IMG/VR virus record: IMGVR_UViG_2606217110_000024
Strand: one strand, 5' to 3'
DNA from: a virus
Taxonomy: Duplodnaviria; Heunggongvirae; Uroviricota; Caudoviricetes
Length of the DNA stretch: 5,028 nt
How positions within the stretch are numbered: the stretch's first letter is position 1; each line of letters opens with the position of its first letter. Shown here piece after piece: positions 228-5,028 of the stretch. The notes under the pieces were generated by a model. It saw nothing but the letters and a program-made list of their open reading frames with translations, was not told the DNA's origin and did no database searches. A program made the position numbers and the translations under genes.

Positions 228-685
228 ACAGAGTAACCGCGATTATCTCCGCTCTGGTTATCTGCATCATCGTCTGCCTGTCATGGGCTGTTAATCATTA
301 CCGTGATAACGCCATTACCTATAAAGCCCAGCGCGACAAAAATGCCAAAGAACTGAAGCTGGCGAACGCGGCAATTACTGACATGCAGATGCGTCAGCGT
401 GATGTTGCTGCGCTCGATGCAAAATACACGAAGGAGTTAGCTGATGCGAAAGCTGAAAATAATGCTCTGCGTGATGATGTTGCCGCTGGTCGTCGTCGGT
501 TGCACATCAAAGCAGTCTGTCAGTCAGTGCGTGAAGCCACCACCGCCTCCGGCGTGGATAATGCAGCCTCCCCCCGACTGGCAGACACCGCTGAACAGGA
601 TTATTTCACCCTCAGAGAGAGGCTGATCACTATGCAAAAACAACTGGAAGGAACCCAGAAGTATATTAATGAGCAGTGCAGATAG
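224..685 (+). CDS. Rz: Rz i-spanin (inner-membrane spanin subunit), 153 aa
   Basis: ATG at 224 overlaps the endolysin stop (caATGA). The product [41 protein letters not shown]... has an N-terminal transmembrane helix and coiled-coil periplasmic domain and is near-identical to lambda Rz from memory. The track ORF 212..685 starts at an upstream GTG; ATG 224 is the canonical start. Confidence 0.93.
444..626 (+). CDS. Rz1: Rz1 o-spanin (outer-membrane lipoprotein spanin subunit), 60 aa, embedded entirely within Rz in the +1 frame
   Basis: Product [24 protein letters not shown]...[18 protein letters not shown] has a signal peptide with lipobox VVGC and a proline-rich mature region, matching lambda Rz1. 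The embedded-gene architecture is classic. Confidence 0.9.
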
Positions 686-689
686 AGCT

Positions 690-705
690 GCCCATATCGA
701 TGGGC
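690..705. terminator. Putative hairpin between convergent Rz and bor (GCCCAT-atcg-ATGGGC)
   Basis: A 6-bp perfect inverted repeat with a 4-nt loop lies in the 31-bp gap between the Rz stop (685) and the bor stop (717). There is no clear U-tract on either strand, so terminator function is uncertain. Confidence 0.3.
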
Positions 706-716
706 AACTCATGCAA

Positions 717-1010
717 TTATTGTGAGCAATACACACGCGCTTCCAGCGGAGTATAAATGCCTAAAGTAATAAAACCGAGCAATCCATTTACGAATGTTTG
801 CTGGGTTTCTGTTTTAACAACATTTTCTGCGCCGCCACAAATTTTGGCTGCATCAACAGTTTTCTCCTGTCCAATTCCCGAAACGAAGAAGTGATGGGTG
901 ATGGTTTCCTTTGGTGTTACTGCTGTCGGTTTGTTTCCAACAGTAAACGTCTGTTGAGCACATCCTGTAATAAGCATTGCCAGAGCGGCAGAAAACAACA
1001 TTTTTTTCAT
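717..1010 (-). CDS. bor: Bor lipoprotein (serum-resistance / lysogenic-conversion outer-membrane lipoprotein), 97 aa
   Basis: Minus-strand ORF; the track product contains MKKMLFSAALAMLITGCAQQTFTV...YTPLEARVYCSQ. I place the start at the internal ATG (plus 1008-1010) giving 97 aa, with signal peptide and lipobox LITGC and an AGGATAA-like RBS just upstream. The track's longer 113-aa form (717..1058) starts at an upstream ATG that is probably not used. Matches lambda Bor from memory. Confidence 0.92.
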   Translation of the reverse strand: MKKMLFSAALAMLITGCAQQTFTVGNKPTAVTPKETITHHFFVSGIGQEKTVDAAKICGGAENVVKTETQQTFVNGLLGFITLGIYTPLEARVYCSQ

Positions 1011-1023
1011 CTTATTATCCTGC

Positions 1024-1055
1024 ATTGTTAAAAACGGCAGAATCCTATGTGACAA
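1024..1055 (-). promoter_or_regulatory. Putative bor promoter (minus-strand -35 TTGTCA, about 16-17 bp spacer, weak -10 TTTTAA/TTTAAC)
   Basis: AT-rich region immediately upstream of bor on the minus strand. The hexamers are imperfect and the assignment is by inspection only. Confidence 0.25.
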
Positions 1056-1370
1056 CAATTAAACGATAGTTAAATGGATTGATGAAAATTAAAACTATAT
1101 AGGTGGATGCTCAGCCTATTGGAGGAGGGGGGGCACTCAGAATCCTGTGGAATGAAATAAACCGCTCTATCTGTCCATTACCCTTTTAGCTGCGCTGTAT
1201 CGTCGCCGTATTCCCGCATTAACCATGACCGTAGCCCGACGGGGAATTCCTTCTGCGTGAGTGTGCGGGAATAATCAAAAACGATGCACACCGGGTTTTA
1301 CTGTGCTGACAGACGCAGGGTTACCCTCATAGTCGCTTTTCCGGTGCGATGGTGGAAGAAACCGGGATGT

Positions 1371-1565
1371 TCATCCATCATCACTTTGGATTGATGTATA
1401 TGCTCTCTTTTCTGACGTTAGTCTCCGACGGCAGGCTTCAATGACCCAGGCTGAGAAATTCCCAGACCCTTTTTGCTCAAGAGCGATGTTAATTTGTTCA
1501 ATCATTTGGTTAGGAAAGCGGATGTTGCGGGTTGTTGTTCTGCGGGTTCTGTTCTTCGTTGACAT
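1371..1565 (-). CDS. ylcI: YlcI/YnfO-family small protein (DUF3950), 64 aa, predicted ribbon-helix-helix-like DNA-binding fold
   Basis: Product MSTKNRTRRTTTRNIRFPNQMIEQINIALEQKGSGNFSAWVIEACRRRLTSEKRAYTSIQSDDG has a basic N-terminus, then a strand-helix-G-loop-helix pattern typical of RHH proteins. I recall it as the small ORF found next to cos at the right end of lambda and as YlcI in DLP12. Confidence 0.8.
   Translation of the reverse strand: MSTKNRTRRTTTRNIRFPNQMIEQINIALEQKGSGNFSAWVIEACRRRLTSEKRAYTSIQSDDG

Positions 1566-2499: not shown

Positions 2500-5028
<2,529 letters not shown>

Follow-up and report, generated by a model that had tools for sequence, protein, structure and literature searches.

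We analysed a 5,028-nucleotide (nt) stretch of caudoviricete DNA (IMG/VR record IMGVR_UViG_2606217110_000024; hereafter, the window). The spacer between its bor/iss and YlcI-like genes, 1011-1370, contains a conserved non-coding element at 1191-1367. This element is very likely a conserved structured nucleic acid, and the functional molecule is probably its + strand. The reading that we favour, with a probability of roughly 0.45, is that 1191-1367 is an accessory, cis-acting + strand structured RNA in the late (pR') transcript. The element appears to be new: the records inspected carry no annotation for it, it has no Rfam family and no paper describing it was found. It is unannotated even though it occurs in lambda, probably the most closely studied phage. 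It is also present in about two-thirds of complete Escherichia coli genomes and in the Stx1/Stx2 phages that drive the disease caused by enterohaemorrhagic E. coli.

Fold and covariation of the element

The preliminary description of the spacer drew attention to a perfect 10-nt inverted repeat around an EcoRI palindrome. Both are present: TATTCCCGCA at 1209-1218 and TGCGGGAATA at 1264-1273 lie 45 nt apart, and GAATTC is found at 1244-1249, within the loop of the repeat. By itself the repeat is only mildly unusual, because a perfect repeat of at least 10 nt with a loop of 3-100 nt arises in 3.3% of 1000 dinucleotide-preserving shuffles of the spacer. Its significance comes from the comparative data. 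The compensating base change in lambda, which the preliminary description had cited, is real: the lambda arms are TATTCCCGGA (46886-46895) and TCCGGGAATA (46941-46950), in which a C-G pair is replaced by G-C.

A consensus fold was built with RNAalifold from 42 distinct copies of block A of the element. The 10-base-pair (bp) repeat forms the middle helix of a long irregular hairpin (hairpin I, 1197-1287, ~90 nt), in which helices of 7 + 11 + 5 + 3 bp are stacked with internal loops between them (Table 1). The inner and apical helices are the weakest part, being derived from + strand folding and rich in G.U pairs; POCJ13-type phages have a 10-nt deletion within this region (1230-1259). A variable linker and a second stem-loop, hairpin III, complete the element. 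In most other phages the linker contains a short GC hairpin (CCGCG..CGCGG; CAGC..GCTG in ES18) followed by CCCTCAT(G/A)nTCGC. The window retains CCCTCAT at 1324-1330, and phage 21 lacks part of the linker. Several unpaired stretches are nearly invariant across copies, namely, ATTAAC, GAGTGT, AATAATCAAAA and GGAAGAA. The last of these is the 3' half of the hairpin III loop, where the window has GGAAGAAAC at 1354-1362.

Covariation was scored on two sets of copies. The first consists of 57 distinct full-length copies aligned with MAFFT, with 33 pairs and 1855 cells. Standard pairs are formed in 97.7% of the cells, and 10 of the 33 pairs are changed on both sides. None of 500 column shuffles reached the observed value on any of five measures, two of which, doubly changed pairs and extra pair types, are robust to relatedness; the shuffle controls themselves ignore phylogeny. 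When partners are slid by 1-3 columns, pairing falls to 29-63%. The outer helix does not vary in the first set because its 3' arm lay inside the first retrieval pattern, AAAACGATGCACAC, which forced that arm to be invariant. The second retrieval used an independent seed and a pattern confined to loop positions. The distinct copies from the two independently seeded retrievals, together with BLAST matches, make up a set of 95. Here pairing is 97.2%, 16 of the 33 pairs are doubly changed and none of 500 shuffles equals the observed values. Thus, when the spacer is aligned with lambdoid relatives and covariation is scored, as the preliminary description had proposed, both arms of the repeat are found to co-vary.

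Changes are distributed over all parts of the fold. In the outer helix, pair 1198/1286 of the second retrieval is U.G, U-A or C-G, and double changes at 1200/1284 and 1201/1283 occur in the divergent copy of locus L293, whose context is epsilon34-like. In the middle helix, C-G is replaced by G-C at 1217/1265 in lambda and DLP12, by U-A at 1213/1269 in the L010 type and by A-U at the same pair in ES18, and by U-A at 1214/1268 in SPN3UB. Pair 1216/1266 changes from G-C to A-U in L293, and 1212/1270 passes from U-A to C-G via U.G. In hairpin III all seven pairs are doubly changed across the 95 copies. Its stem occurs as CCGGU/ACCGG and CCUGU/ACAGG, as CUCGAU/AUCGAG in ES18 and as CUGGA/UUCAG in L293.

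The preliminary description had suggested either a conserved stem or a protein-binding palindrome. The stem stands, with 6 of the 11 middle-helix pairs changed on both sides among the 95 copies and further helices co-varying. The palindrome is disfavoured: pairing persists although the bases themselves change, and frequent G.U states break the symmetry of the DNA.

Some variation lies outside this pattern. In the Stx1a phage 99E13 (388-420 of its locus) an 11-bp tandem duplication (CCGTATCGTCG) is found on the 5' side of hairpin I; the right repeat arm of the same copy has a 1-nt deletion, and the stem persists with one bulged base. A further homopolymer prone to slippage, in addition to the G7 run of the spacer, occupies the 5' half of the loop of hairpin III (1348-1353 in the window); its length ranges from 5 to ~10 G between phages (L046, L056, L090, L122). 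A pseudoknot or alternative helix between the segment 5' of hairpin III and its loop was considered and rejected: the best candidate is 86-88% paired, and phage 21 lacks the segment.

Occurrence, polarity and strand

The element (lambda 46868-47040; E. coli K-12 DLP12 579009-579182) is located where the lysis/moron module meets the packaging module. Its homology ends at 1188/1191 on the left and at 1365-1370 on the right, abruptly in many phages, and covariance model R1 scores window 1191-1374 at 194.5 bits. In BLAST searches, 1185-1305 matched 432 phage records, every one with at least 80% identity. Carriers include lambda, 434, 21, 933W, POCJ13 and many Stx1/Stx2 phages, as well as the Salmonella phages ES18, SPN3UB and S107. 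The whole element, 1191-1367, was matched by megablast in 3669 of 5426 complete E. coli genomes, with a median of one and a maximum of seven copies per genome, and copy number tracks prophage number. No PGAP annotation lies beneath the element in E. coli RefSeq genomes. A region identical to that of lambda also occurs in four contigs (L164, L171, L241, L242) assigned to Pseudomonas sp. 30_B, a metagenome-assembled genome of Chromatiales and others. Lambda spike-in or assembly contamination is the most likely source of these contigs.

The surroundings of the element were compared across 117 loci. [quoted passage not shown] By contrast, bor is found at only 36 and YlcI at only 48 of the 117 loci. 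Since each of these genes is missing from many loci while polarity is constant, the element is neither the upstream region of bor nor the downstream region of ylcI. Instead, it stands by itself as a unit whose orientation is bound to that of the late operon. Outside its edges the flanks are unrelated, with at least six types on the left and at least six on the right. Left neighbours are bor, rha or KilA-N-associated genes. On the right, the element is followed by ylcI, ybcV/p78, small genes of phage 21, an HNH-terminase module, the terminase of 933W or ES18, or cos directly. In cargo-free genomes the small terminase gene begins ~85-190 nt downstream.

Hairpin III also occurs outside complete copies of the element. 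The K-12 Qin prophage (L249 5460-5563, - strand) has a lone hairpin III, UCCGGC...GCCGGA with a loop ending in GAGAGAA, which adjoins the stop codon of ydfO. This copy lacks hairpin I and shows an extra compensatory change from U-A to C-G. A second, degenerate hairpin III (GTCCTGTTCGGAGGGAAGAACGCGGGAT) is present in lambda (~48079-48109; L001 2680-2710), where it adjoins the stop codon of an unannotated ylcI-like open reading frame (ORF), and in K-12 DLP12 (L125 4225-4255). Because of this second copy, the p78-p79 cargo is bracketed by hairpin-III-like sequences, and the copies in Qin, lambda and DLP12 show that cargo genes entered at the 3' edge of hairpin III. A different structure follows the element in phage 2B8 (L255 592-621) and at many Stx-type loci. 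This terminator-like + strand hairpin, 7-15 nt past hairpin III and just before cos or the next gene, reads GUGC(G/A)ACCGUGGU(C/U)GCAC and then ACUUUUGU, with a compensatory variant of G-C to A-U. It is a feature separate from the element.

Base identity is altered at half of the positions while pairing is kept, which argues for a folded single strand rather than a protein operator. The G.U pairs point to one strand in particular. About 450 cells contain a G.U pair when read on the + strand, versus 22 with G.U only on the - strand, and over the 57 copies pairing is 97.7% on the + strand versus 83.9% on the - strand. At 1212/1270 the 95 copies have U-A in 55, U.G in 33 and C-G in 7 cases, and at 1343/1363 the states are G-C (55), U-A (24) and G.U (10). 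Frequent G.U intermediates of this kind exist in the + sense only. We infer that the functional molecule is the + strand, and consider this probable. In the orientation used here, the + strand is the sense strand of the Q-dependent late (pR') transcript, which crosses this region and cos to reach nu1 and A. In a CRISPR interference screen of lambda, polarity made the + strand gene lambdap79 score as essential although it is not, whereas bor and p78, on the - strand, did not score as essential (PMC10695390). The polarity at lambdap79 agrees with the + strand lying in the late transcript.

Searches for known features gave little. Rfam 15 yielded no match in window 1011-1370 (cmscan, E-value mode) and nothing at the element in seven other carriers, including lambda, 933W, 1717 and SPN3UB, up to E 10. 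As the preliminary description stated, 1011-1370 contains no ORF of 60 or more amino acids (aa); internal ORFs have 31-37 aa, and a mechanical TTG extension of bor (717..1058) enters the first 48 nt of the spacer. A coding gene or pseudogene was rejected, since block A contains indels of 1, 10 and 11 nt, the length of the linker varies by amounts that are not multiples of three, and the sole shared ATG (1284) is ATA in a large subfamily. The ORFs at 1178-1291 (- strand) and 1284-1394 (+ strand) have no Pfam match, and the frames of the 37-aa - strand ORF, the 36-aa + strand ORF and an 81-aa ORF of 933W are not conserved. A scan of 1011-1370 found no intrinsic terminator on either strand; loops have 15 to ~45 nt, and no U-run follows the hairpin I helix or hairpin III. 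In a scan limited to this type of promoter, a consensus sigma-70 promoter was found neither upstream of 1191 nor inside block A. Upstream flanks vary by context, so that there is no shared promoter upstream.

Other candidates were likewise set aside. A mobile repeat (of the miniature inverted-repeat transposable element, repetitive extragenic palindrome or enterobacterial repetitive intergenic consensus type) does not fit one copy per prophage, always in the Rz-terminase interval and in a single orientation. The exact Chi octamer, GCTGGTGG, occurs in 0 of 95 copies, the hairpin III loops being GATGGTGG, GGTGGTGG, GGGGGTGG or TGACACGG. The likeness of these loops to Chi and to ops reaches 7 of 8 matches at best and is inconsistent between variants. 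Nut-like boxA/boxB features near hairpin III, with boxA just upstream, are partial and equally inconsistent. A 10-nt - strand match to the E. coli type I-E CRISPR repeat does not extend to the copy in the window. When genome contigs were scanned with a degenerate pattern, almost all matches were due to chance. In the literature no known RNA was found at this locus; the Pas small RNAs (sRNAs), PreS/LPR1, LPR2, 6S and the small RNAs of P22 map elsewhere.

A proposed late-transcript RNA and its alternatives

In the reading that we favour, the + strand of 1191-1367 would fold inside the late transcript, at the border between lysis and packaging genes. The second hairpin would present the conserved purine-rich loop GGAAGAAA. 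The element could then provide an endonuclease entry site flanked by protective hairpins, so that the lysis-gene and head-gene parts of the 26-kb late mRNA would have separate fates. Such a role would bear on the long-standing observation that functional stability differs between segments of the late message. A role as a determinant of processing or stability is suggested by analogy with the intercistronic hairpins of T7 and the RNase III sites of lambda; it is the likeliest of the possible roles but tentative, and we consider it unlikely to be correct in this specific form. If the element does control the processing, stability or translation of the late mRNA, it bears on how a single 26-kb transcript yields unequal amounts of lysis and morphogenetic proteins, and offers a handle on phage and toxin-phage output.

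The element is best filed as an unnamed addition to the conserved structured RNA motifs of phage operons. RNase III processing hairpins are known from polycistronic phage mRNAs, such as the R0.3/R1.1-type sites of T7 and the sib and N-leader sites of lambda. Like these, the element has a large irregular non-coding hairpin on the sense strand of a long phage transcript, between gene blocks and in fixed polarity. Unlike these, it shows no sequence similarity to them, and the known lambda sites lie in early transcripts. Compared from sequence alone, hairpin I is also broken by large asymmetric internal loops, so that it is not an obvious 20-bp substrate of RNase III. The put sequences of HK022 are cis-acting antitermination RNAs just downstream of the early promoters pL and pR. 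They too consist of two stem-loops in a lambdoid transcript, in one orientation, with a compensatory stem change and with particular loop bases that matter. The element, however, lies over 2 kb away from pR', its operon is one in which Q already provides antitermination, and HK022 lacks the element. Linkers at module junctions are exemplified by the PeSL (promoter early stem-loop) cassettes of T4-type phages and by the 'boundary sequences' proposed for lambdoid phages. The similarity lies in a short conserved intergenic stem-loop block at mosaic joints and cargo insertions. In contrast, PeSLs contain a promoter and a terminator, of which the element has neither, and covariation is not expected of recombination linkers. 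Prophage sRNAs (6S/LPR2, PreS/LPR1, StxS, AgvB, AsxR, Esr41, Pas, DicF and IpeX) are also lambdoid-borne non-coding RNAs, some of them cut from operon transcripts. They are located in the Q-holin interval, the ea10-ral interval or the immunity region, unlike the element, and no Rfam model matches it.

Several observations weigh against a late-transcript RNA. A mechanism of the leader type does not sit easily with the distance from the element to the next translated gene, which ranges from ~85 nt to over 1.5 kb. The strand asymmetry becomes modest when counted as events instead of sequences; raw transition counts in stems versus loops reveal no general mutational bias, and the strand signal at the level of events is weak. 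The Salmonella copies (ES18/SPN3UB) contain C.A mismatches that would be G.U on the - strand. Viable phages exist with mismatched hybrid stems in hairpin III, as in phage 21 (CCGGU/ACAGG). Fold energies are not clearly better than those of shuffled sequences, with z = -1.21 (+ strand) and -0.13 (- strand) for 1191-1298, and -0.9 and -1.45, respectively, for 1150-1400. The lone or duplicated hairpin III beside the stops of - strand cargo genes hints at a role for hairpin III at the level of DNA or of the - strand. Finally, nhmmer and the covariance model found no homologue of the element in the right ends of P22, HK97, HK022 and phi80, a marginal match in HK022 being discarded as it falls inside a coding ORF. 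Thus, the element is accessory and dispensable.

The alternatives considered were, in this order, a trans-acting RNA, a recombination linker, a - strand RNA, a protein operator and neutral hitch-hiking. A processed, stable non-coding RNA of ~180-230 nt, acting in trans through the GGAAGAAA loop and an A-rich internal loop, seems unlikely. Such an RNA could be excised from the late transcript or ended by the terminator-like hairpin, and its partner could be a protein of the Hfq, ProQ or CsrA type or an RNA of host or phage. Covariation and strand evidence speak for it as they do for the late-transcript RNA, and specific unpaired stretches are nearly invariant. In 2B8-/Stx-type phages the + strand terminator-like hairpin (GUGCGACCGUGGUCGCAC then ACUUUUGU, with a GCAAC/GUUGC compensatory variant) stands after hairpin III, an accessory status suits a moron-like regulator, and there is a precedent in the Hfq-bound sRNAs that lambda operons yield (bioRxiv 10.1101/2024.10.31.621285). 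By contrast, no upstream promoter is conserved, the flanks vary with context and the window copy has no terminator after it. The RNAs named by RIL-seq (RNA interaction by ligation and sequencing) in lambda are LPR1, LPR2 and 6S only, all outside the locus of the element (bioRxiv 10.1101/2024.10.31.621285). Slightly less likely again is a linker shared at the DNA level, through which homologous recombination swaps lysis and packaging modules and inserts cargo, the hairpins mattering, if at all, as structures of single-stranded DNA or through descent from terminators. Consistent with this, the edges of the element coincide with mosaic joints (at least six flanks on either side), lambda and DLP12 have the degenerate hairpin III beyond the p78-p79 cargo, Qin retains hairpin III alone beside ydfO, and hybrid stems such as that of phage 21 resemble crossovers within the loop. 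The extra hairpin III copies of Qin, lambda and DLP12 are the chief argument for a linker. However, recombination requires identity, not pairing, and so a linker leaves the 16 compensatory pairs, the G.U intermediates and the strict polarity unexplained. The element also diverges more than its flanking genes do (82% versus 91-96% identity between window and lambda). Even if it proves to be no more than a linker, the element pinpoints a position at which modules are recurrently exchanged and cargo genes inserted.

In the window and in lambda, DLP12 and Qin, only 3-4 nt separate hairpin III from the stop codon of a - strand gene. This would fit a functional - strand RNA, serving in the lysogen as a 3' untranslated region, stabiliser or insulator for ylcI or ybcV/p78, or as a leader or upstream element of bor. 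We regard such an RNA as improbable. Watson-Crick pairs fold equally well on both strands, and the C.A mismatches of ES18/SPN3UB turn into G.U. Yet no - strand gene is present on either side in 933W, POCJ13, ES18, 29485, 2B8 and phage 21, and the 36 loci with bor are a minority. On the - strand, 14% of the cells would be unpaired, majority states at four pairs among them. Neither hairpin is followed by a U-tract on this strand, and the fold has z = -0.1. The repeat as a two-fold symmetric operator, bound by a protein that regulates bor or its neighbours, is the least credible of the alternatives. It is a perfect palindrome upstream of bor in the window, and symmetric double changes preserve dyad symmetry. 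However, the half-sites are 45 bp apart, 6 of 11 helix pairs differ in base identity between phages yet still pair, and asymmetric G.U states occur often (33 of 95 copies at 1212/1270). Moreover, the element is present without bor, and no candidate regulator gene accompanies it. Hitch-hiking neutral DNA or a decayed gene, whose apparent covariation stems from relatedness, is very improbable as well. Lambdoid phages exchange DNA freely, many copies are near-identical, shuffle controls take no account of phylogeny and some lambdoid phages dispense with the element. By contrast, the two measures robust to relatedness were exceeded in 0 of 500 shuffles, and double changes arose in separate lineages (lambda type, L010 type, Salmonella ES18/SPN3UB and L293). 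The block is kept beside unrelated flanks, with no coding signature and no Pfam match.

Besides these alternatives, lambda, the Shiga-toxin phages and most E. coli prophages might carry an unrecognised family of structured non-coding RNA, either embedded in the late transcript or released from it. Its specific partner could be the ribosome, a nuclease, an RNA chaperone or a host or phage RNA bound by the invariant GGAAGAAA loop; we hold this to be no more probable than the processing role. Such a partner-bound RNA would tune the production of virions and toxin phages, or host physiology, during induction.

Neighbouring genes and the rest of the spacer

The window spans two parts of a lambda/434-like prophage, its right end and its cos-proximal left end. 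From left to right it carries the C-terminus of R, Rz/Rz1 (212-685), bor/iss, the spacer and the YlcI-like gene, then cosN at 1764/1765, nu1, A, W and the portal gene B. The two genes flanking the spacer had been named correctly in the preliminary description, as matches to PF06291 and DUF3950 confirm (Table 1).

Table 1. Positions of the element, its parts and neighbouring features in the window
Feature	Position	Strand	Basis and remarks
Whole conserved non-coding element (hairpin I, variable linker, hairpin III)	1191..1367	+	Sharp homology edges, covariance model, fixed polarity
Outer helix of hairpin I	1197..1203 with 1281..1287	+	RNAalifold consensus, pair counts
Middle helix of hairpin I	1209..1219 with 1263..1273	+	Arms of the preliminary description plus U1219/G1263 (one U.G pair)
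Inner and apical helices of hairpin I	1230-1232, 1234-1235 with 1255-1259; 1242-1244 with 1249-1251	+	RNAalifold, pair counts; EcoRI site at tip
Variable linker	1299..1338	+	Alignments
Hairpin III	Stem 1339-1345 with 1361-1367, 15-nt loop	+	Alignments, pair counts
bor/iss lipoprotein gene, left neighbour	717..1010	-	Pfam PF06291, E = 6e-31
YlcI-like DUF3950 gene, right neighbour	1371..1565	-	Pfam PF13132, E = 2e-20; stop codon 3 nt from hairpin III
Putative bor promoter	1042..1076	-	PhoP-box-like repeat cATTTA-actat-cGTTTA (1076-1060), 12 nt, -10-like TAGGAT (1047-1042)
G7 homopolymer	1127..1133	.	Length varies between phages

Phage 434 and several lambda-like isolates share the spacer at 99.4-100% identity, and the ribosome-binding site of bor is the sole annotation within it in the 434 record. 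Window 601-1064 aligns with lambda 46343-46809, 1188-1298 with lambda 46865-46974 at 82%, and 1354-1764 with lambda 48092-48502. The accessory block that the preliminary description thought to be missing relative to lambda is p78 and p79, ~1.1 kb without a counterpart here. The YlcI-like DUF3950 ORF is kept in lambda at 48109-48303, with 96% DNA identity to its equivalent in the window. It is unannotated in NC_001416, which lists only p78 and p79 in this region. At the far end of the window (4599-5028), the homology of portal gene B to other prophages ends at ~4757, and 4814-5026 (- strand) is the C-terminus of an IS21-family IstB (PF01695). It looks as if an insertion sequence of the IS21 family truncates B, and for this reason the prophage is probably defective.

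The suggestion that the spacer is simply the bor promoter region holds for ~1011-1076 only. The inverted repeat lies ~130 bp upstream of the putative promoter, and the element is also found in phages without bor. The putative promoter is ~30 nt upstream of the bor start. It resembles a PhoP-activated promoter, defined here as (T/G)GTTTA-N5-(T/G)GTTTA ~12 nt upstream of a -10 hexamer. The lambda equivalent (46805-46821) is a perfect direct repeat, TGTTTA-gggtt-TGTTTA. Minagawa et al. 2003 reportedly described PhoP control of borD, and the motif fits Mg2+/PhoPQ control of bor/iss expression in lysogens.

Between the promoter and the element, 1077-1190 is common only to 434- and 21-type phages, and lambda has other sequence there. 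The G7 run singled out in the preliminary description lies in this segment. Its equivalents are G6 (434), G7, G9 or AGTTGGGGA (phage 21), so that it is not conserved and is probably irrelevant. Nothing else notable was found in 1077-1190 apart from one copy of a 12-nt direct repeat, CAGAATCCT(A/G)TG, at 1038-1049 and 1138-1149, 100 bp apart. Since the first copy overlaps the putative -10 of bor, part of the promoter region may be duplicated.

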